Source of the DNA: a phage
Sequence record: PX880098.1
Direction: 5' to 3' (one strand)
Length of the DNA: 44,688 nt
In this document: in pieces, positions 2,877-35,100 of the stretch
Numbering within the stretch: the first letter of the stretch is position 1
Layout of the letters: each line of letters opens with the position of its first letter
Program-made: the position numbers and the translations under genes
Notes under the pieces: generated by a model
What the model saw: the letters and a program-made list of their open reading frames with translations, nothing else
Told to the model about the DNA's origin: nothing
The model's database searches: none

Positions 2877-3092
2877 TTATACGCCGTATTTTATGAAGTC
2901 GAAAGCCCATTGTGTCGGTCTGTATTCAACCCCATTCCCGTCGTCGACCATTACAAGAAAACCCTTATCCATTAGTTTTCTAATTGTGCGGTCCCCTTGC
3001 TGAAAGCTAGTGAAATGTGAGTCGTTTTTGAAGGTATAGCCATGTTTAATGGCTTCTTCTGTTGTTTTCTTCTCTAATTTAGTTAACTTCAT
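2877..3092 (-). CDS. hypothetical protein (counter-oriented moron, 71 aa)
   Basis: Only minus-strand ORF inside the plus-strand head block; visibly AT-rich; own promoter (3121-3149), GAGGA SD and own terminator. Confidence 0.6.
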   Translation of the reverse strand: MKLTKLEKKTTEEAIKHGYTFKNDSHFTSFQQGDRTIRKLMDKGFLVMVDDGNGVEYRPTQWAFDFIKYGV

Positions 3093-3120
3093 TTCTTTAT
3101 ATCCTCGTTTCGATAACTGA

Positions 3121-3149
3121 ATAGTACCCTATTATATTGGTGTCTGCAA
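3121..3149 (-). promoter_or_regulatory. sigma70-like promoter, family B (TTGCAG-N17-TACTAT)
   Basis: Minus-strand reading TTGCAGacaccaatataatagggTACTATTCA; 17-nt spacer; contains ATAG-N4-CTAT; upstream of the 71-aa gene. Confidence 0.55.
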
Positions 3150-3193
3150 ATATTATTTTTATGCGTTACACTGGTGATACTACAGGAGGGCCT

Positions 3194-4237
3194 ATGAGCT
3201 TACTTACATCCCTAATCAGCCACCAGATATGGCTGCAACGCACCGCATCCGGTGAAGTGAAAGACCTTGCGCCGTTTCTTCAGGAAATGCGGGACGAAAT
3301 CAAACAGCAGGTGCTGTTATTCGGTGACGACGGGCGAAGCACCGCGCGGTTGAATAAATTGTTACGCGACCTTGAAGAAGCACTGACCGGGATTACGGAC
3401 GACTGGCAGACAAAGCTGGCAGAAGACCTCAAAGAACTGGCAGCGTACGAGGCCGAGTGGAACGTAAAGACACTGACAGCCAACGTTAACGCGGAATTTG
3501 TTACGCCTACTGCCGAGCAAGTGTGGGCCGCCGCCGAGTTTCAACCTCTGTCACTAAGTGACAAGCCTGTCGATTTCACCAAGCTGATGTCTGGTTGGGG
3601 TGAAACGGAGGTGGCGCGCCTGGTAACTGGCGTTAAGATGGGCTTTGTTCAAGGCAAGACTACACGGCAGATTGTAAAAGAAGTAGTCGGTAAAGGCGGG
3701 CTGGCTGACGTATCGGAGAAATACGCAGCTACGGTAATCCGCACCGCGCTGTCTCACGTGTCCAATGAAGCACGCAACGAGACGTACCGCCAGAACGACG
3801 ACATCATCGAGAAGTATGAGTGGGTGTCAACGCTGGACAGCCGTACCAGTACGATTTGCAGAGCCCGGGACGGAATGACGTGGGAAATTGGTAAAGGGCC
3901 AATGCCCCCAGCCCATCCGAATTGTCGGTCGTGCACGGCCCCGGTAATCAGTTCAGAGTTCGACTTCCTCGATAAAGGTGCAAAACGTGCGGCTAAGGGT
4001 GCGGACGGGGGTACTCAGGTTAGCGCAGACACAACCTATTACGAGTTCCTGAAACAACAACCGGCATGGTTTCAGGATGAAGCACTCGGCCAGGTTCGGG
4101 GTAAGATTTTCCGCAACAGCGGTATATCACCGGAAGAGTTTCGCGTAATATCTGTAGATGGTTTCGGGAATCCGCTCACGCTTAAGCAGATGGCGGAACT
4201 CGATAAACGTGTTGCTGATTATCTGAAAGGGGAATAA
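3194..4237 (+). CDS. head morphogenesis protein (Mu gpF / SPP1 gp7-like)
   Basis: Follows portal; C-terminal region with PMPPAHPNCRSC resembles Mu F-like minor head proteins; start chosen at ATG 3194 after GGAGGG; listed ORF begins at TTG 3137 inside the promoter. Confidence 0.6.
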   Translation: MSLLTSLISHQIWLQRTASGEVKDLAPFLQEMRDEIKQQVLLFGDDGRSTARLNKLLRDLEEALTGITDDWQTKLAEDLKELAAYEAEWNVKTLTANVNAEFVTPTAEQVWAAAEFQPLSLSDKPVDFTKLMSGWGETEVARLVTGVKMGFVQGKTTRQIVKEVVGKGGLADVSEKYAATVIRTALSHVSNEARNETYRQNDDIIEKYEWVSTLDSRTSTICRARDGMTWEIGKGPMPPAHPNCRSCTAPVISSEFDFLDKGAKRAAKGADGGTQVSADTTYYEFLKQQPAWFQDEALGQVRGKIFRNSGISPEEFRVISVDGFGNPLTLKQMAELDKRVADYLKGE

Positions 4238-23382: not shown

Positions 23383-23523
23383 CTACTCTTCTGATAACTT
23401 CTCCAGTACAAACGCCAGTTGTGCATTAGCGGCATCTCTCTGTTGCCGTAGGCGTAGAACCTCCTCTTCAATTTCCTTGATACGTTTTTGCAATGCCGGA
23501 ATCGGGGCTATGATGTTCATCAT
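23383..23523 (-). CDS. small coiled-coil protein (46 aa), absent from ORF track
   Basis: ATG overlaps the stop of the upstream gene (ATGA); uninterrupted 46 codons; last gene before the terminator. Confidence 0.4.
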   Translation of the reverse strand: MMNIIAPIPALQKRIKEIEEEVLRLRQQRDAANAQLAFVLEKLSEE

Positions 23524-23708
23524 TTGAACTCCACCAAACCGTTGTTAAAGAACTCGGCGATTATGTAGCCCGAGTCATCGTCGTAATCGGCGACTATCTC
23601 GCCATCGTCCTCATAAGTTACGCGGTACTCAATGCCGTTATAGTAGGCCTGATATTCTTCACCCTCTTTGAACTCAGGTACGTTTGAGCTAACACAAAAC
23701 AATTTCAT
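23520..23708 (-). CDS. hypothetical protein (62 aa, acidic)
   Basis: ATGA-coupled ORF in minus-strand operon. Confidence 0.5.
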   Translation of the reverse strand: MKLFCVSSNVPEFKEGEEYQAYYNGIEYRVTYEDDGEIVADYDDDSGYIIAEFFNNGLVEFK

Positions 23709-23890
23709 TTCTTACCTTCGCTTTTCTTGAAACTGCACTTTATGTCCGGCAGCGTGTAGCACCGTGATTTTTCGTATTTACCGTTCGAGCTTACCAAAAC
23801 AAAGCTGTTGCCGTCTTTTGATATGTACTCGACAATAAAAGTATTGGATGTATGTACGCTGTATATTTCGTCTCCAACATTAAGCTTCAT
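23705..23890 (-). CDS. hypothetical protein (61 aa)
   Basis: ATGA-coupled ORF downstream of helicase gene. Confidence 0.5.
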   Translation of the reverse strand: MKLNVGDEIYSVHTSNTFIVEYISKDGNSFVLVSSNGKYEKSRCYTLPDIKCSFKKSEGKK

Positions 23891-26352
23891 TTCTTACCTC
23901 GTCTCTTCATGTAATTAAGCAATTCTTCCTGGACAGATTTCTTCTCGTCAGTGCGCGCGGCGACAACCTCATCCAGCGTGTCTTTAGCAACGATGTGGTA
24001 TAGGAACACAGGGCGCTCGTGACCCGCCTGTTTCTGGCGTACTGGGCCTATACGCTCAACAACCTGCAAATAGTGCTCAAGGTTCCAGCCTTGTGAAATG
24101 AATGCCAGATGATGCCCTCCGTCCTGTAAATTCAAACCATGGCCCGCTGACGCAGGATGCACGCATAATATTTCGATTTCCCCGCGGTTCCACGCTTCCA
24201 TCTGCTTATTACCTTTAACGCCTTTGGCAAACGCCTGCGCCTGCGGGAATCGCTTAAGGATGCGCTCCAGTTCGTGCTTGAACTGATAGGCCACTAGTAA
24301 CGGCGCACCCTGTAGCTCCTCAACAATGGACTCCAGAGCATCCAGTTTCGTGTCGTGTACTTTCTCCCAGTCTTTCGTTGCTTCGCCATCTGGCCCTGAT
24401 ACGTATACGGCACCGGATGCAATCTGCAGACACTTAGAGGTCTTCGCCGCAGCGTTAGCCGCTTCAACTTCTCCGCTCTCCAGTTCAGCAAATAACTTCT
24501 CCTCCATATCGATGTACGCCTGACGCGCTTTCTTCGGCAGGTCAATTTCAACCGGTACAATTATTGGCGCTTCACAACCAAACCACTCGGCAGCGTCAAT
24601 CGTGAGACTAATGTCCTTCATCTTCTGGTGAATTTCGTTATCCGCACCTGGGCGGGCGTGGTATTCGCGCGCCATAGCCGATTTGCCTTTCTGTACCGAG
24701 TTAAACCAGCGGTCGGTGAATGCTGTGTATGATGACCCCAGGCGCTCGCCAGCGTCGATAAACCAGTTCTGGCCCCACAAGTCCTTGAGGCCGTTTGGTG
24801 ACGGTGTACCGGTCAGATTGATGAAACGTTTAACATTACCGAACGCCACTTTGCTTAGTGCCTTTGCTCGCTTGCTTCCGCCAGAACGGCTGCGGAATGA
24901 TTTCAACTTCGTGCTCTCATCGGCAACAATAACCGTAAAAGGCCAGTCGTCTTTGCCGTAGTAGTCAATCAGCCACTCGATTACCTCATAGTTCGTGCAC
25001 ACCACGTTAGCGTCGGACTCCAGCGCCGCGATGCGGCGCTTCTCTGAACCGGTCGCATCTACGACGCGCAGACAAGGGAAACCCCACTTAGTTTGTTCTG
25101 CCGGCCATGTGCCGGACGCAACACGCAACGGCGCAAGGATTAACACACGGTCGTCATCATTAAGTTGGCCGTTGCGGAACAGCCGATTGAGAACCCACAT
25201 CGTCGAGCTTGTGTTGTGCGTTACGGTGAAGTCGCCTAATAGAAACCGGTGGTCACCGTCGATAGTGAAGCCGTAATAATCATCTACGCCGACCGGGGTT
25301 ATAGATTCTATTCCAACGTTAAGTACGTTTTTATTAATATTACGCTTCGGTAAATTCTGGTGGCGGCCACGCACGAAAGGCACCTCAGAAAAATCGCCTG
25401 ATACCGATACGCGGAAGTAATCCCCCCAAACATCAGTGTTTGCGCAACGCTTACGAGTTTTCTTCTTGTAAGCGGCGAAACCAAGAGAACGGCATAGATA
25501 GCAAAAATCATCAGCGAGTCGCTCGCTTACCGAAATCCAGTCAAAACCTGCTTTAGACAAATCACAATAACCGTCGCTATCCAGAAGCCCCGCCAGCAAT
25601 TCTAAACGTTGCTGCCGGTCGCCGCATTTGTAATTATGCGGTATATGCTTATGGTTCAAGACCCCCGCCGACCTCAGCGCGTGCGTAAGCCCGTGCTTCT
25701 TATTGCCAGTATTGCCGTAAGATATACTCCATGTAAGTCCTTCTTTTCGTATTTGCATCCCATTACGCGCTGCGTACGATTCAAGATACTCCCTTATTTC
25801 CTTTTCGTTTTCCCCAGATGTTATGGCTCCCGACGATGAGGTGCCATCACCAAGCCACAGCCCCATAAGGTACGGGGGCAATAAAGCATCGTCCTGATCT
25901 TTCCTCGGGAAATCGACAGGTACTCGCCAACCCTTAAGATACCCATTAGGTCCGGTTACATATTTCGGCAACTTAAGCCAGTCGCGGACGCTTATGTCGA
26001 AAACGGTATTATCCGGCCATGAACCCTTTGCTATCCCTGTAGTAGTTCGCAGTGATAATATATGGCTTTCGTTTACCGTATACGACTCTCCTTTTCGCGG
26101 TTTAACCTCGTACATCATCTCCCGGCCTCTACCGAGAGACAGTACATTTCTAGGCGTTGAATCTGGCCCCATAAGCACGTCACCGACGATGACGTCTTCT
26201 ACTTTCTTGGTCGTACCGTCAAACATAATAACTTCAGTCCCGCGTTTCAGGCACTTGCCGCTACCCATACTTGCCCAGATATTACAGCGCGGGTTCCGCA
26301 GCATGAACGAGGTCATGAGCTTTTGATAAGGCCTTCTAGTGAATTTACTCAT
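23887..26352 (-). CDS. SNF2-family helicase interrupted by an intein
   Basis: Walker A split as MGSGK|intein|TSS; DExx-like box VIVADESTKLK; NLTGTPSPNGLKDLW and GHGLNLQDGG helicase motifs. Confidence 0.75.
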   Translation of the reverse strand: MSKFTRRPYQKLMTSFMLRNPRCNIWASMGSGKCLKRGTEVIMFDGTTKKVEDVIVGDVLMGPDSTPRNVLSLGRGREMMYEVKPRKGESYTVNESHILSLRTTTGIAKGSWPDNTVFDISVRDWLKLPKYVTGPNGYLKGWRVPVDFPRKDQDDALLPPYLMGLWLGDGTSSSGAITSGENEKEIREYLESYAARNGMQIRKEGLTWSISYGNTGNKKHGLTHALRSAGVLNHKHIPHNYKCGDRQQRLELLAGLLDSDGYCDLSKAGFDWISVSERLADDFCYLCRSLGFAAYKKKTRKRCANTDVWGDYFRVSVSGDFSEVPFVRGRHQNLPKRNINKNVLNVGIESITPVGVDDYYGFTIDGDHRFLLGDFTVTHNTSSTMWVLNRLFRNGQLNDDDRVLILAPLRVASGTWPAEQTKWGFPCLRVVDATGSEKRRIAALESDANVVCTNYEVIEWLIDYYGKDDWPFTVIVADESTKLKSFRSRSGGSKRAKALSKVAFGNVKRFINLTGTPSPNGLKDLWGQNWFIDAGERLGSSYTAFTDRWFNSVQKGKSAMAREYHARPGADNEIHQKMKDISLTIDAAEWFGCEAPIIVPVEIDLPKKARQAYIDMEEKLFAELESGEVEAANAAAKTSKCLQIASGAVYVSGPDGEATKDWEKVHDTKLDALESIVEELQGAPLLVAYQFKHELERILKRFPQAQAFAKGVKGNKQMEAWNRGEIEILCVHPASAGHGLNLQDGGHHLAFISQGWNLEHYLQVVERIGPVRQKQAGHERPVFLYHIVAKDTLDEVVAARTDEKKSVQEELLNYMKRRGKK
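25213..26253 (-). mobile_element. intein with LAGLIDADG homing endonuclease domain (347 aa)
   Basis: Begins with Cys after GSGK, ends THN followed by Thr; two LAGLIDADG-like motifs LMGLWLGDGTS and LAGLLDSDGY; C-terminal block FLLGDFTVTHN. Confidence 0.75.
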
Positions 26353-26540
26353 TTCAGCACCAGTACCAGTTCTTTACGCCCGAACGCCGTAACGTTACCG
26401 GTTACATCTTCGATAACCAGTTTACCGTTCGACCCGACGAACACCGTATCAACGGCAACAGGACGACGTGTCTTAACGTTGAAAATCATGTCGCCAGGTA
26501 CGATGTCACGTGCTGGTTTGCGGTCGTATTCGTGTTTCAT
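26349..26540 (-). CDS. hypothetical protein (63 aa)
   Basis: First ORF downstream of promoter 26574-26602; ATGA-coupled to the helicase gene. Confidence 0.5.
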   Translation of the reverse strand: MKHEYDRKPARDIVPGDMIFNVKTRRPVAVDTVFVGSNGKLVIEDVTGNVTAFGRKELVLVLK

Positions 26541-26939: not shown

Positions 26940-27071
26940 TCATTCCAGCACCCACAGATAAATTGCGACGAACATACCTAATACGGCGACAATCATGCCG
27001 TATTGACCCTCGTGACAGTAGACCCCGGCGGCAAATCCCGCCAGTACCGCGATAATCAGTTTACTTAGCAT
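26940..27071 (-). CDS. small hydrophobic protein (43 aa), absent from ORF track
   Basis: ATG overlaps the 3-prime end of the polymerase gene; sequence MLSKLIIAVLAGFAAGVY...FVAIYLWVLE predicts a membrane hairpin. Confidence 0.35.
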   Translation of the reverse strand: MLSKLIIAVLAGFAAGVYCHEGQYGMIVAVLGMFVAIYLWVLE

Positions 27072-29301
27072 AACGCATCATCTCCGCGCCTTCTGCTACA
27101 AGAGGGAACCCCTCGGCCCATTCAGGTAATTCGCACATCAACCGCTCAAGTTCAGCCACCGTGTACTCGGGGGTATCTGGTGTCTCGCAGATAATCTCAT
27201 CGTGGACATGAAGTACAATCGGATAACCGTTTGCTTCTACGTTCAGCAGCGCGTTGGCCAGCAAATCACGGCACAACGCCTGGGTGCAGTTTTCCACCAG
27301 TTTACCGGAGTAGGTGTACTGGAAGCCCCACTGGCGGGTTAGCTGATTTTCGCCCTGGTACTTGATGCGCACGTTAGTAGACACCTTTCCGTCTTCATCT
27401 GTCTCTTTCGATACACTTAACCCGACGCCAGGGTATGACATAACGCGACCCGACGGCAACGTCATGCGCAGCCACCAACCAGCGACCTTGTTGCCGTTGT
27501 TGTCTGTTTCTACGTTGCGCGAAAACTTAACCCCCCGCGGCCCTGCGGTGAACTCTTTACCCGGATTGCGGATAGCCGCCATAGCCGCGTCTTCAATATC
27601 GCGCCAGAATTGGACTATTGCAGGATTAGCTTCCCGGTACATGCGCTTTAAAGCGTCACAGGTACGCCAGACTTTCTTATCAAGAATATACGATGGTCTG
27701 TCATCCTTTTCACCAGGACGTGGGGGGCGCTTGGCTTCCTGAATACGCGCCCACTCATAGCCTCGCGCGGTAGCAGCCCAGATATGGTCCGGGAAAGTCC
27801 CGTCTAAAGTGCAGGTCATATCGTTCAAATCAAGACCTAAGTTTTTAGCAAACGTGACGAAAGCACCGACGCCCCCCGCGTAGCCGAGGCCCAGAACCAT
27901 TGCTTTGGCTATTTGTCTTTGGTCCTTTGTTACGGCTTCATACGCAACGTTGAACACCGTTGATGCGAGTTTCTTGTACACATCAACCCCGTTTACAAAT
28001 ACTTCGATTAAATCGTCTTCTCCGGCCAGCCACGCAAGCCCGCGGCCCTCGACGTTGGAGTAATCGGCAACAACAAACTTATGCCCTGCTTCCGGTATTA
28101 TGCAGCTGCGCACCGTCGACGCCGTTAGTTTGGCTACATCGAAACGGCGATGTGCGCGTCCTTTAAGCAGAAGGTCTATTCCGTAGGACAATGGGTGCGT
28201 TACTCGCCACCAGTCCTTCTCTGACATCCAGTCGTAACGTACTTTCTTCTTTTCATTCTTCGGGTCGTCGTGATAGTACCCGCGCGCCAGGTTCTGTGGC
28301 TGAAAGCCTTTACCCGCAAACCGCAATGTACGCTTAGCCCCACCATACTGGATGCAGCCACGGCGGCGGTCGTCCGACGAGCGGCCCAACAGCAGCGGGT
28401 TATATTTCGTTGACGCAGTGGACGCGGCGCCGAGGCGCATTTCGATAATCGTGCGGGCGTCGTCCGGTAAATCATCATCTGCTAGCAGGTCATTCAGCAT
28501 CGACTTCTGTGCGTTATGGATGCGGTGCGCTGGCGCAAGTTCACGCAGAATCGGCAAGAAGTCTTTACCAGTAAGTGAGCCGCCGTATTTACGTTGGGCT
28601 TCTTCCTGTAACTGCGCCTTGTGTTTCTCTACCGCTTCAATCGCTGCTTCTGCAAGCGCGACGTCAACCTTAAACCCGCGGTCATTGATTAACTGGTCCA
28701 GCTCCAGTACACGGTCTTCGAACTCGGAGTTACCCCACCGCGGCAGCTTATGGAAGACTTCGCGCATCGCAGTGATGTCGCTAACGGCGTACTTGATGAA
28801 CAGCGACCACTCATCCGGGTGCGTTTCCGCGGTGTAGCGTCTGATTTTGTAGTTCTTCGGTGTCGGTTTAGAGAAACGCTGAATCAGTGCCTTGCCGCGT
28901 TTGTCTTTCGCGTTGTCGGCGGATACACCAAGCACTTCACACAAGGCGTCAAGTGAACCGGGCAGCGCGTGACGAAAAGCCCAAATCATCGTATCAATAG
29001 TGTTGCTTACCGGAATATCAAAACCCCAGCAGTGCTTCATGATGAGCCTGTCGAACATTGAGCCGTTGTGCCACACCATCTTGATGCGGCTGTTTGGCTT
29101 AACCAGTCGGCGTAGCGCGCGGTGCAAATCGCCCGGCATATCGCTGCCGTCAGTGCAATCCCATACCTGCACAGGCTCGTCGTCAAAAGCATAGGTACAG
29201 ATAAGCACTTCTGTAGTTGGGTGTTCGGCGTAAGCGTAAGAACCGACTTTCTTTAAATCGGCTTCGGAGAATGTTTCAAAGTCTAAGAACAGGTAACTCA
29301 T
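27061..29301 (-). CDS. DNA polymerase, family A, with 3-prime-5-prime exonuclease domain
   Basis: Exo I motif LDFETFS; motif A DYSNVEGRGLA, motif B RQIAKAMVLGLGYAGG, motif C HVHDEII. Confidence 0.85.
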   Translation of the reverse strand: MSYLFLDFETFSEADLKKVGSYAYAEHPTTEVLICTYAFDDEPVQVWDCTDGSDMPGDLHRALRRLVKPNSRIKMVWHNGSMFDRLIMKHCWGFDIPVSNTIDTMIWAFRHALPGSLDALCEVLGVSADNAKDKRGKALIQRFSKPTPKNYKIRRYTAETHPDEWSLFIKYAVSDITAMREVFHKLPRWGNSEFEDRVLELDQLINDRGFKVDVALAEAAIEAVEKHKAQLQEEAQRKYGGSLTGKDFLPILRELAPAHRIHNAQKSMLNDLLADDDLPDDARTIIEMRLGAASTASTKYNPLLLGRSSDDRRRGCIQYGGAKRTLRFAGKGFQPQNLARGYYHDDPKNEKKKVRYDWMSEKDWWRVTHPLSYGIDLLLKGRAHRRFDVAKLTASTVRSCIIPEAGHKFVVADYSNVEGRGLAWLAGEDDLIEVFVNGVDVYKKLASTVFNVAYEAVTKDQRQIAKAMVLGLGYAGGVGAFVTFAKNLGLDLNDMTCTLDGTFPDHIWAATARGYEWARIQEAKRPPRPGEKDDRPSYILDKKVWRTCDALKRMYREANPAIVQFWRDIEDAAMAAIRNPGKEFTAGPRGVKFSRNVETDNNGNKVAGWWLRMTLPSGRVMSYPGVGLSVSKETDEDGKVSTNVRIKYQGENQLTRQWGFQYTYSGKLVENCTQALCRDLLANALLNVEANGYPIVLHVHDEIICETPDTPEYTVAELERLMCELPEWAEGFPLVAEGAEMMRYAK

Positions 29302-32817: not shown

Positions 32818-35100
32818 CTATTCCAAATCCTCCTCTGTCACCACCAGCATTTCATTAGGTTCGTATATTGTCTTCGGCCTTAGTCTATCCCCTATTCTTT
32901 CAGGTATACGATACGTTCGCGGCACTACTTCGCCGTTAGCGTCACAGCCTAGCATTAGTTCGCCATCTTTCAGCATTTTATCAAGATGGGTGTTAGTCAC
33001 AGAAAAGTCACCGGAACGGGCAACTATCTGCTGCTGAGTAAAACCGCGACCTGTGTCATCTGACTGTTGCAGGTCTTCCAGTGCCGAAAGTATTGACTCC
33101 TTTCTCCCTTCATCCCTGCCGCGTTTAACTTCTTCCTTTACTTTTTCTTTACCTTTATCGGATAGCCCTTCTTCCCGCTCCTTCTCCTCGTCAGTTTTGA
33201 ACGGCTCGAAGCCCCACGGCATCAATACAAGCGCTTTGTGCGGTTCAGGCAGGTCGAGGTTTACGATTGTGCCGTATTCCTCTGTGCTACCCCGGAACTC
33301 AACCGCGCGGTACTCTTTCGGCGGCGGGGCTTCGCGGAACTGTACGGACTCAAGCACCATGCCAACCGTTTTCTGCTGAGGCCCGTGCTTAAATTTTGAG
33401 TGGTATACGTTTATCTGACGGTCGGTAGCGCGTTCGATTGTCAGCTCTACGTCAACGCCCGCGTACAGCGCCCCACTGCCACGGGCTTTCTTTCCACCCT
33501 TCGGCGTATGGTGGACGACGCCTACCGCGGCTTTAGTCGCGTCGCGTACTTCTTTCAGGATGGCGATGACTTTACCCATGCCGATTGCCGTTGATGAACT
33601 GTTCTCGTCGAACTTATCAATCGTCAGGGCCAGGGTCTGGTTAAGGGTGTCGAACGCGACCATGCCAATTGGCTCGTCGCCAGCAGTTTCTCGCATCAGC
33701 TTAATCAGGCTTTTCAGTTTTCCGACTTCACCCATATCGATGACGTGTACATAATCTTTACCTTCCACGCCATATTTAGCCGCGAGCGCGTCAATACGTG
33801 TGCGGGTGGCGGCACCGCCCTCCCCGTCGATATAGAAATGGTGGCAACGCTGGGTGTCCGCCCCTGCAAACCTGTATCCGGCGGCGCTGAGGTACATCAT
33901 CCCCAGCGTATAAAACGATTTGTACGTACCGGATTCCCCAACAATATCCCAGATGCAATCTGACGGCATGTACCCTTCAACGACGAAATCAGCCTTTACC
34001 GGTTCCGGCAACTCGCCCTCCTCTGAGTCTTCGTCATCTTCCAGGTCGTCAAGGCTGCATGAAACGGACTCCCGCGCACCCCAACCTATAGCCTCTGCAA
34101 CCTCACTGAACGGAAGCCCGGTCGCGTCGCACGCGTATTTCCACACCTCTTTCGGTGACATGCCTTCGGTCGCCGTAATGTCGGTGTCGTGAATCATGGT
34201 TACGTTCGGCGCTTCGTACCCCTCGCGCGGGAAGCACAGCAGGAAGTCATCTGGCCTCGGCGTCGGGTCGCTGTATTTTTCTGCGTGTTCCGGCGTAGCT
34301 GGCATCTTAAGGCCGCGCGGCGTCATGATACCGCCGTATTCAAACGCCAGCGCCTCAAACGCATCGGTAAACGCTGTGCGCAGTTCTTCCGGTATCTGGT
34401 AATCCGACGCGCTGCTAACGTCGACGGCTGGGATGCCTTCCAGTAACTCGTCCGGGTCAATCAGGTCGTTGCGACGAGACCAGATAACCTGAGAGCCGAC
34501 CGGCGGCAGGTACATCGGCTGCGACAGAGTGAACCCGCTGCGGTCAGCACCCATGCCTTTAAAGAAGTGCTCCAGCAATCCGTGACGAACGCGGATGATG
34601 TCACCGCCTTCAACCGGACGACCCAGAGGCATGACTACGCGAAAGCGCGGTGACTCATCGGTATGTGATGCCGTGGTGTAGAGACACATAGCCCGACGGC
34701 TGCGCTTAACCAGACGCACTGCTTCCTGGTACTCTTCCGGTGTTGCACTGTCGAAGTCCAGATACGCCAGCGACGATTTGCTTACAGACGCGTCACAGCG
34801 ATAAAAGAAACCTTTGCGCGCTTGCTTAAAGTCACCGGTTTCCGGGTCTTTTACGGTGCTGTGCGTTGAGTCGCACGCGGCAGTGATATAGCCAGGCGCT
34901 GTCTTCGGGTTAACCCCGTCTCGAATGGCATCGAGCGGCTGTATTAACTCTTTCAGGTCGTCCAGTGTTGCCGTGTGCGTGGTTCTGACGTTTATATCCT
35001 TTTTCTCAGCCCGCGCGTTGCGACGTGACCACGAGTAGGATAAAATTACATCGGACATGTTGTATATTCCTTCAGCAAGTAATTTGGCCTCGGCGTTCAC
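32818..35100 (-). CDS. primase-helicase (AEP-type primase domain fused to P-loop NTPase)
   Basis: AEP-like DxD motif AYLDFDSATPEEY and SH-TDE motif in N-terminal half; Walker A GESGTYKS in C-terminal half; C-terminus TEEDLE. Confidence 0.6.
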   Translation of the reverse strand: MNAEAKLLAEGIYNMSDVILSYSWSRRNARAEKKDINVRTTHTATLDDLKELIQPLDAIRDGVNPKTAPGYITAACDSTHSTVKDPETGDFKQARKGFFYRCDASVSKSSLAYLDFDSATPEEYQEAVRLVKRSRRAMCLYTTASHTDESPRFRVVMPLGRPVEGGDIIRVRHGLLEHFFKGMGADRSGFTLSQPMYLPPVGSQVIWSRRNDLIDPDELLEGIPAVDVSSASDYQIPEELRTAFTDAFEALAFEYGGIMTPRGLKMPATPEHAEKYSDPTPRPDDFLLCFPREGYEAPNVTMIHDTDITATEGMSPKEVWKYACDATGLPFSEVAEAIGWGARESVSCSLDDLEDDEDSEEGELPEPVKADFVVEGYMPSDCIWDIVGESGTYKSFYTLGMMYLSAAGYRFAGADTQRCHHFYIDGEGGAATRTRIDALAAKYGVEGKDYVHVIDMGEVGKLKSLIKLMRETAGDEPIGMVAFDTLNQTLALTIDKFDENSSSTAIGMGKVIAILKEVRDATKAAVGVVHHTPKGGKKARGSGALYAGVDVELTIERATDRQINVYHSKFKHGPQQKTVGMVLESVQFREAPPPKEYRAVEFRGSTEEYGTIVNLDLPEPHKALVLMPWGFEPFKTDEEKEREEGLSDKGKEKVKEEVKRGRDEGRKESILSALEDLQQSDDTGRGFTQQQIVARSGDFSVTNTHLDKMLKDGELMLGCDANGEVVPRTYRIPERIGDRLRPKTIYEPNEMLVVTEEDLE

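Follow-up and report, generated by a model that had tools for sequence, protein, structure and literature searches.

A PI-SceI/VMA1-type intein predicted in the Walker A motif of a phage SNF2-like helicase, and the probable footprint of its homing

The closest described counterparts of the element analysed here are the helicase inteins of Jerseyvirus and Kagunavirus phages, which occupy the same site (GSGK/C...HN/TSST, the slashes marking the junctions), have the same 347 aa and share with it 95-99% aa identity. Carriers are the Salmonella phages SETP3 (EF177456), vB_SenS-Ent1 (HE775250), Ent2 and Shelanagig, and the Escherichia phages Shashou (MK931440), Sciku and buks. This helicase intein is already known: its annotation in GenBank dates from SETP3 and vB_SenS-Ent1, and the records of SETP3, Ent1/Ent2, Shashou and Sciku annotate an intein with a LAGLIDADG homing endonuclease as a mat_peptide, HE775250 with the words 'intein: encoding splicing domains and a homing endonuclease of the LAGLIDADG type'. 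A literature search for SETP3 and intein returned incidental mentions only. The primary descriptions are reportedly those of De Lappe in 2009, Turner in 2012 and Anany in 2015. The genome announcement of Shashou states that the helicase of this phage has an intein (PMC6776780). Among solved structures, the closest is that of PI-SceI, the VMA1 intein of S. cerevisiae (PDB 1dfa, 1lws, 1vde and 9cop). What is new here is the allele mosaic of the copy described below, with its putative homing footprint, together with the purifying selection on the endonuclease domain and the lower synonymous divergence of intein copies relative to their host genes.

The window, that is, the whole stretch of 44,688 nt of phage DNA that was analysed (sequence record PX880098.1), contains a single ORF of 821 aa plus stop (23887..26352, minus strand) without internal stop codons, the product of which matches the DNA helicases of PHROG 62 (1.6e-201). 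The original prediction, in which the strand was unmentioned, had described this helicase ORF and an in-frame insert of 347 aa starting with Cys and ending in THN. Both were recovered, and the coordinates of the insert (25213..26253, minus strand) proved to be exact, its 1041 nt being translated without any stop. The insert opens with CLKRGTEV and closes with FTVTHN. It is preceded by an N-extein of 33 aa (26254..26352, minus strand), whose translation ends in the first half of the Walker A motif (ASMGSGK), and followed by a C-extein of 441 aa plus stop (23887..25212, minus strand), in which Pfam and motif positions locate the DEST, TGTP and Helicase_C motifs. The C-extein begins with TSSTMW and its first codon (25210..25212, minus strand) specifies the +1 Thr that completes the Walker A motif as GSGK-T.

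By profile and motif evidence, the insert falls among the canonical class-1 inteins of PI-SceI/VMA1 type, composed of a Hint domain with an embedded two-motif LAGLIDADG endonuclease. The intein HMM search agreed with the original prediction: Pfam finds in the insert Hom_end_hint (the Hint domain; 1e-23, 85 bits against a cutoff of 32.1 bits) and LAGLIDADG_3 (1.4e-8, 35.3 bits against a cutoff of 22.5). The insert as a single sequence matches PI-SceI in phmmer (1e-18), and a profile built from the insert and remote homologs hits PI-SceI, the VMA1 intein of yeast, at about 1e-46, so that chance resemblance is far from sufficient; the homology found with the same profile also covers other solved inteins (PRP8, gp41-1 and DnaB). 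Family membership can be regarded as settled because the E-values range from 1e-23 to 1e-46.

The intein features are all encoded on the minus strand. Splicing block A, CLKRGTEVIMFDG (26215..26253), aligns to residues 1-53 of PI-SceI and starts with the codon of the putative nucleophile Cys1 (26251..26253). Splicing block B, N61-E-S-H64 (26062..26073), is an NxxH variant of TxxH with Asn where Thr is usual, and PI-SceI is said to carry the same substitution; His64 is invariant in distant relatives. The LAGLIDADG homing endonuclease domain (25354..25893, about intein aa 121-300, with approximate limits) is delimited by the LAGLIDADG_3 and Hom_end matches in Pfam and aligns to PI-SceI 209-454. 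The two predicted LAGLIDADG-type motifs are found in this domain with their acidic residues kept: LMGLWLGDGT (25840..25869), in which Asp136 aligns with PI-SceI Asp218, and LLAGLLDSDGY (25567..25599), in which Asp227 aligns with PI-SceI Asp326, both Asp residues being invariant in homologs. In two-motif LAGLIDADG endonucleases the motifs lie about 90-100 aa apart and each one ends in a catalytic acidic residue; here, 91 aa separate LMGLWLGD136G from LLAGLLDSD227G. The C-terminal splicing block that had also been predicted corresponds to blocks F and G, VGVDDYYGFTIDGDHRFLLGDFTVTHN (25213..25293), and ends in His346-Asn347, a pair that is invariant in homologs. Thus, Cys1, N61xxH64, D136, K202, D227, H346-N347 and the +1 Thr are all present in the window copy, and H64, D136, D227, H346 and N347 are invariant across six diverse homologs with 23-50% identity. 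The reading of the insert as a PI-SceI/VMA1-type intein between the Lys and the Thr of the helicase Walker A motif, one that would be spliced out and would home, is very probable.

Removal of the intein in silico restores the Walker A sequence GSGKTSS, as had been anticipated, and yields a helicase of 474 aa with GSGKT at residues 30-34. The SNF2-related Pfam match improves from 3e-9 with the intein to 2.2e-12 after excision (SNF2-rel_dom, above the cutoff), when it reaches over the Walker A motif, while the Helicase_C match of the spliced extein (1.5e-3, 19.2 bits) stays below its cutoff of 23.5 bits. An SNF2-like SF2 helicase is expected to have motifs I (GxGKT), II (DExx) and III and a C-terminal RecA-like Helicase_C domain; GSGKT, DEST and TGTP are found in the spliced extein. 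The host protein can be assigned, from Pfam SNF2-rel_dom and PHROG 62, to the SNF2-like SF2 ATPases. Some records name this helicase DarB-like. Replicative helicases are hexameric proteins of the DnaB, gp4 or MCM type, or are linked to a primase, and drive the replication fork. The label of replication helicase that the original prediction gave to the host was not borne out: the extein is SNF2-like SF2, not SF4 or SF6 (Pfam), and a separate AAA_25 protein of 760 aa (32818..35100) has as its counterpart in relatives the protein annotated 'replicative helicase-primase'.

The full gene of 2466 nt is carried by 169 phage records. In intein-free orthologs with 92-97% aa identity, the helicase is encoded by one uninterrupted gene of 1425 nt that is devoid of exactly these 1041 nt. 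Homologs thus do not share the segment as a domain that is conserved and left in place, the finding that would have spoken against the original prediction. Among Guernseyvirinae helicase alleles, about 170 are occupied and more than 250 are empty, the presence/absence polymorphism falling exactly at the K/T boundary. Intein-bearing and intein-free genes were aligned by position, which is valid because the extein lengths are identical; a whole-gene MAFFT alignment with and without the intein was discarded, as the intein-free N-extein was misaligned against the C-terminus of the intein. The site is changed in all five intein-free alleles examined, the forms being GAGK.SSAT, GGGK.TSST and GSGK.SVAT. 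At the junction, the flanks of the window gene, taken as a candidate synthetic target of the endonuclease, read GCAAGTATGGGTAGCGGCAAG before and ACAAGCTCGAC after the insertion point; the reconstructed empty site reads TGGGCAAGTATGGGTAGCGGCAAG and ACAAGCTCGACGATG, and the natural empty allele of CR01/UTEC10 reads GGCGGCGGCAAG and ACCTCGTCGAC; Ro145clw and SB3 have further natural empty alleles. The exact empty target site had no match in IMG/VR, and the best unoccupied near-match to the junction flanks among 50,697 phage records was 83% over 60 nt. As these searches turned up no empty site that looks cleavable, the endonuclease may currently have few targets.

A possible decaying copy of the intein in Salmonella phage GE_vB_M5, suggested by a three-piece tblastn match with 70% identity, was left out of the analysis: the record is marked UNVERIFIED and shows, at 91.6% nt identity, 14 indels within 1.3 kb, for which sequencing errors are the most likely cause. 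In relatives, the minor head (Mu-F) protein and the DNA polymerase are also annotated as intein-bearing. The counterparts in the window, a Mu-F protein of 366 aa and a polymerase of 746 aa, gave no match to Hint or endonuclease domains that would point to a second intein.

Selection was assessed by computing dN/dS and dS over eight intein-bearing copies (28 pairs). The dN/dS was 0.055 in the intein and 0.025 in the C-extein; the endonuclease domain, at 0.063, matched the splicing domains in its low value. Purifying selection acts on both intein domains. The value of the C-extein indicates that intein-bearing phages keep a functional host helicase, for which splicing would be needed. The mean dS of the intein copies (0.23) is about three-fold lower than that of their C-exteins (0.72).

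Compared with the Jerseyvirus and Kagunavirus phages, the C-extein and the upstream flank of the window gene are of Kagunavirus type, and its N-extein and intein are of Jerseyvirus type. The Jerseyvirus-type (donor-type) patch, defined by identity in 60-nt bins and by informative sites, comprises the intein and its co-converted flanks in a Kagunavirus-type backbone (25202..26400, minus strand). Its 5' end is approximate, lying 0-50 nt upstream of the ATG, and its 3' crossover lies between nt 6 and 21 of the C-extein, the first 6-11 nt of which are still of Jerseyvirus type. The N-extein and intein are 94-97% Jerseyvirus type: the first 78 nt of the N-extein show 2-5 differences from Jerseyvirus intein-bearing alleles versus 19-23 from intein-free alleles, and all 15 of its informative sites are of donor type. 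In the C-extein, the first four informative sites are of donor type and thereafter 26 are of Kagunavirus and 6 of Jerseyvirus type; its nearest relatives are intein-free Kagunavirus alleles, nt 31-150 being 97.5% identical to those of UTEC10. The best DNA identity of the intein itself is 95.6%, and the exact allele of the window is absent from the phage collection. Phage Shashou has a different tract end: nt 1-78 of its N-extein belong to the type of intein-free CR01 and the final 21 nt to the intein-bearing type. Crossovers of donor-type patches next to the site of insertion are thus seen in two or more independent lineages. Read from these allele types, the Jerseyvirus-type patch in its Kagunavirus-like backbone would be the gene-conversion footprint of homing.

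In the pathway established for inteins, which the phage element would follow, the gene is translated as a precursor of 821 aa with an interrupted ATP-binding loop. Cys1 would form a thioester at the N-terminal junction, the +1 Thr would attack this thioester, Asn347 would cyclise with the help of His346, freeing the intein, and an acyl shift would link GSGK to TSS, giving an active helicase of 474 aa and a free endonuclease of 347 aa. Upon co-infection with a related phage bearing an unoccupied and cleavable helicase allele, the endonuclease would cut that allele, and its repair would copy in the intein and a little of the adjoining extein. From the sequence we infer that the phage intein does splice and does cleave DNA. 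In the literature searched, no experiment showing that inteins of this family splice or cleave was found. A tentative reading, the chances of which we put a little short of even, is that a Jerseyvirus-type intein has recently homed across genera into a Kagunavirus-type phage, with strongly asymmetric co-conversion that extends about 100-150 nt in the 5' direction but no more than 6-21 nt in the 3' direction; the approximately 32 bp common to all occupied alleles (21 nt preceding the insertion point and 11 nt following it) would then approximate the recognition site of the endonuclease, and all surviving empty alleles, in which codons flanking the P-loop are changed there (GGGK, GAGK, SSAT and SVAT), would be resistant to cleavage. 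If this is true, an essential loop for ATP binding has its sequence shaped by intein pressure in this subfamily of phages.

The footprint could also have arisen by ordinary homologous recombination between co-infecting phages, with no homing initiated by the endonuclease. Guernseyvirinae genomes are highly mosaic, Jerseyvirus-type informative sites are scattered over the C-extein (6 of 32 after nt 11), and the intein itself is uneven, gene nt 792-1139 being 98-100% identical to S10 and buks and nt 432-790 only 80-97%. However, the 3' crossover of the window lies 6-21 nt from the intein boundary and the 5' crossover of Shashou within about 21 nt of the other one; two crossovers hugging the boundaries are rarely expected by chance in a gene of 2.5 kb, which argues against ordinary recombination and makes it an unlikely explanation. 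A similarly low probability is assigned to an intein that splices but, with its endonuclease inactive or out of targets, is inherited only vertically, as expected late in the homing cycle. Such an intein could persist because it is difficult to delete precisely from a P-loop, and both the scarcity of close unoccupied sites and the alterations at the site itself in every intein-free allele examined fit this idea. On the other hand, the low dN/dS of the endonuclease domain, the conserved catalytic Asp136 and Asp227, an intein dS of one third that of the extein and the crossovers near the insertion site in separate lineages point to an intein that has probably been mobile recently.

The insert might also be a permanent accessory domain, an exapted Hint/LAGLIDADG module that is never excised, and the deduction of precursor splicing from sequence leaves room for it. 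Nevertheless, an insert that splits GSGK/T would abolish nucleotide binding unless removed, the orthologs lack exactly this segment, and C1, H64, H346, N347 and the +1 T are kept in the 23-50% identity relatives within unrelated ATPases. The strong purifying selection on the extein of intein-bearing phages likewise speaks against such a domain, which is highly improbable.

In annotation, the gene is best entered as that of a helicase precursor that contains an intein and gives two mature peptides. Among the roughly 170 homologous records, many say only 'DNA helicase' or 'hypothetical protein', some have a truncated start and one has a split gene. The Guernseyvirinae alleles, with their varied ends of co-conversion tracts, are a good natural set for studies of homing, escape by change of the target site and spread between Salmonella and E. 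coli phages. As a selfish element lodged in a P-loop, the helicase intein is a textbook case and leaves current understanding unchallenged.

PI-SceI and the phage intein have in common block A, both LAGLIDADG motifs (D218/D326 corresponding to D136/D227), a lysine (K301 and K202, respectively), the C-terminal block DDYYG...DHxFLL...HN, and a host P-loop NTPase split in its Walker A motif. However, the phage intein is shorter (347 aa versus 454 aa), and its stretch from block B to the first LAGLIDADG motif, where PI-SceI has its DNA-recognition region, is much shorter and unalignable. The +1 residue is Thr instead of Cys, the host is an SF2 helicase instead of a eukaryotic V-ATPase, and the K/T insertion lies three residues further along the P-loop than the G/CGKT insertion of VMA1. 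Homologous inteins are also found in the Walker A motif of another phage ATPase, the terminase large subunit (mycobacteriophage TerL1-a, Klebsiella YX3973, Vibrio pYD38-A and Lactococcus LW81). These terminase inteins show 29-39% aa identity to that of the window, and their host is TerL, not a helicase. Those of YX3973 and pYD38-A are inserted at G/SGK[ST], three residues upstream of the window site, whereas that of Lactococcus phage LW81 lies, like the window helicase intein, at K/T, which has been described as the classic P-loop insertion (PMC5050341).

The helicase precursor ORF (23887..26352), placed here on the minus strand, which the original prediction left unstated, encodes 821 aa. An insert of 347 aa (25213..26253, minus strand) has a stop-free translation from CLKRGTEVIMFDG to FTVTHN and is flanked by ...NIWASMGSGK and TSSTMWVLNR, so that its predicted location between GSGK and TSSTMW is borne out. 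Excision in silico leaves 474 aa, in which GSGKT falls at residues 30-34, DEST at 131 and TGTP at 167, and the Walker A motif is restored as proposed.

An intein HMM search agrees with the proposed identity, since in Pfam the insert matches Hom_end_hint at 1e-23 (85 bits; cutoff 32.1), as well as LAGLIDADG_3 (1.4e-8) and Hom_end (2.7e-4). The spliced extein matches SNF2-rel_dom (2.2e-12), with Helicase_C below threshold; when the unspliced precursor is scanned, the SNF2 match drops to 3e-9 and begins only past the insert. The PHROGs assignment is phrog_62 ('DNA helicase', 1.6e-201), and the insert also matches PHROGs terminase and primase families with inteins. The nearest solved structure to the insert is the yeast VMA1 intein PI-SceI (1e-18). 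A profile built from the insert aligned with five relatives (23-50% identity; Klebsiella, Vibrio, Lactococcus and Clostridium phages) hits VMA1/PI-SceI at about 1e-46, and also the PRP8, gp41-1 and DnaB inteins. His64 (block B), Asp136, Asp227, His346 and Asn347 are invariant across these six sequences, and in the five of them whose flanks are readable the insertion falls in a Walker A loop, at K|T or at G|SGK[ST]. Both predicted LAGLIDADG motifs, with Asp136 and Asp227, and the predicted C-terminal splicing block, with His346-Asn347, align to PI-SceI. The insert is a genuine intein, and its original interpretation was right.

The alternative, that the segment is a conserved domain which is not excised, is contradicted by its distribution. 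When the phage collection was searched by tblastn with the spliced extein, many records gave one uninterrupted match of 1422 nt at 92-97% aa identity (Ro145clw, fFiEco03, fEg-Eco06, STP03 and SB3), and others matched it as two pieces over 2463 nt. ASMGSGK|C...HN|TSST is read in all eight intein-bearing alleles extracted; in the five without an intein, the site is MGAGK.SSAT, MGGGK.TSST (in three of them) and MGSGK.SVAT. Because of these uninterrupted orthologs and allele reads, the insert is polymorphic, being present or absent precisely at the junction Lys|Thr. The full 2466-nt gene is present in 169 records of the collection and intein DNA in 177 (170 Salmonella phages, four Escherichia phages, and one each labelled Proteus, Pseudomonas and Jerseyvirus).

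The helicase intein is already known and is not novel. Many records name the gene 'putative intein containing helicase precursor', SETP3 (EF177456) carries 'putative intein containing helicase', and vB_SenS-Ent1 (HE775250) has mat_peptide features for 'helicase (extein)' and 'intein: encoding splicing domains and a homing endonuclease of the LAGLIDADG type'. Equivalent features exist in the Kagunaviruses Shashou and Sciku, the Shashou announcement reports the helicase intein (PMC6776780), and SNF2/HepA helicases rank in the top 15 of intein hosts in bacteria (PMC4760082). The sole, modest addition from the window is a clean footprint of gene conversion across genera.

Over its first 25 kb, the window shares about 90% identity with Kagunavirus-type phages of E. 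coli. The best matches of the C-extein (23887..25212, minus strand) are Kagunaviruses (CR01, 91.7%; UTEC10, 91.4%), and those of the intein are Salmonella Jerseyviruses (95.6%). The first 78 nt of the N-extein (26254..26352, minus strand) show two differences from buks and Ent1, against 19-23 from intein-free alleles. The intein is 94.7-95.6% identical to those of buks and S10 (98-100% in the last 350 nt), and C-extein nt 1-11 are identical to the intein-bearing type; over nt 31-150, only 3 of 120 positions differ from intein-free UTEC10, against 19-24 from buks, S10 and Ent1. A site counted as informative when buks, S10 and Ent1 share one base and CR01 and UTEC10 share another. All 15 such sites in the N-extein are of Jersey type, as are the first four of the C-extein (nt 3-6); beyond nt 11, 26 are of Kaguna type versus six of Jersey type. 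The three upstream bins that run from -228 to -49 are again of Kaguna type, with identities of 95-97% to CR01 and UTEC10 and 92-98% to TPH05A and Shashou, versus 85-92% to buks and S10. The N-extein, the intein and the start of the C-extein form a donor-type patch. In Shashou, N-extein nt 1-78 match intein-free CR01 and STP03 (three mismatches) and nt 79-99 match the intein-bearing type, so its 5' tract end differs from that of the window. Such near-site crossovers in separate lineages are the footprint expected of double-strand-break repair begun at the homing site. Within the intein (25213..26253, minus strand), gene nt 792-1139 (the final ~350 nt) match S10 and buks at 98-100%, and nt 432-790, the central endonuclease-coding part, match every copy compared at only 80-97%; this heterogeneity suggests recombination between intein lineages.

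Across eight intein-bearing genes (28 pairs), dN/dS by the Nei-Gojobori method is 0.055 over the intein as a whole, 0.041 in either Hint half, 0.063 in the LAGLIDADG domain and 0.025 in the C-extein. Since these values are low in intein, LAGLIDADG domain and C-extein, splicing and endonuclease activities both seem to be under maintenance. Phages with the intein keep a working helicase, which implies that the precursor is spliced. Mean dS in the same pairs is 0.23 for the intein and 0.72 for the C-extein; the intein copies share a more recent common ancestor than their host genes, implying horizontal spread.

By established intein chemistry, Cys1 would undergo an N-S acyl shift, followed by trans-esterification onto the +1 Thr and cyclisation of Asn347 aided by His346, and an O-N shift would link GSGK to TSS. 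The freed 347-aa protein would be a monomeric two-motif LAGLIDADG endonuclease acting on intein-free alleles in mixed infection. IMG/VR holds five occupied sites and no exact empty site. In the phage collection, no uninterrupted site resembles the occupied flanks; the best match to the 60-nt spliced junction reaches 83.3%, and the best uninterrupted 40-aa match 90%. These results are compatible with a homing cycle that would have filled all cleavable alleles, the remaining empty ones having diverged at the site.

In Salmonella phage JD01 (NC_073189.1, minus strand of the locus, about 3001..3201), the helicase gene retains its first ~23 nt, fused to some 50 nt of foreign sequence that encode ...PDIEEAKRLLNYDPETG, which is presumably similar to the N-terminal end of HNH endonucleases from phages. 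After this come the final 128 nt of the intein, 100% identical to the window; the frame meets a stop, and the annotated helicase start is the Met past the intein. Either the allele is broken or the record is misassembled. Salmonella phage GE_vB_M5 (MG969410.1, UNVERIFIED) shows 14 indels over 1.3 kb of the intein region, in three frames; it was rejected as a decaying intein, the indels of this unverified record being probably sequencing errors.

The label 'replication helicase' is unsupported, the extein being an SNF2-like SF2 protein (DarB-like in some records) and a separate AAA_25 protein (760 aa, 32818..35100) matching the annotated replicative helicase-primase of relatives. Relatives also have annotated inteins in the polymerase (3099 nt in S10 and Ent1) and the minor head protein ('minor head protein with inserted intein' in KMB36 and fEg-Eco06). 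Because of these annotations, at least three intein sites are polymorphic in the subfamily, and only the helicase site is filled in the window: no Hint or endonuclease match was found in its family A DNA polymerase (746 aa, 27061..29301, minus strand) or Mu-F-like minor head protein (366 aa, 3137..4237, plus strand). Downstream of the helicase, small minus-strand ORFs of 61 aa (23705..23890), 62 aa (23520..23708) and 46 aa (23383..23523) occupy 23383..23890, and for most of this stretch (roughly 23530..23880) blastn found no match among the nine relatives compared; this looks like a window-specific cassette between helicase and tailspike. Upstream, the stop of a 63-aa ORF (26349..26540, minus strand; no Pfam match) overlaps the helicase ATG (ATGA), and relatives keep this ORF as a hypothetical protein. 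UTEC10, FSL SP-101, Shashou and Kenya-K6 carry a methyltransferase gene (Dcm or another) or one for an HNH endonuclease in the general area upstream of the helicase; because such genes occupy this neighbourhood, the region is a mobile-gene insertion hotspot.

The alignment with PI-SceI takes in block A, the two LAGLIDADG motifs, Lys202 and the C-terminal block. Within motif 1, YLLGLWIGDG of PI-SceI faces YLMGLWLGDG (Asp218 corresponding to Asp136), and in motif 2 FLAGLIDSDGY faces LLAGLLDSDGY (Asp326 corresponding to Asp227); Lys301 of PI-SceI is Lys202 here. Block B reads N-E-S-H instead of T-x-x-H, and PI-SceI probably has the same Asn in this block. At the C-terminus, DDYYGITL..DHQFLL..VVHN of PI-SceI corresponds to DDYYGFTIDGDHRFLL..VTHN of the window intein.
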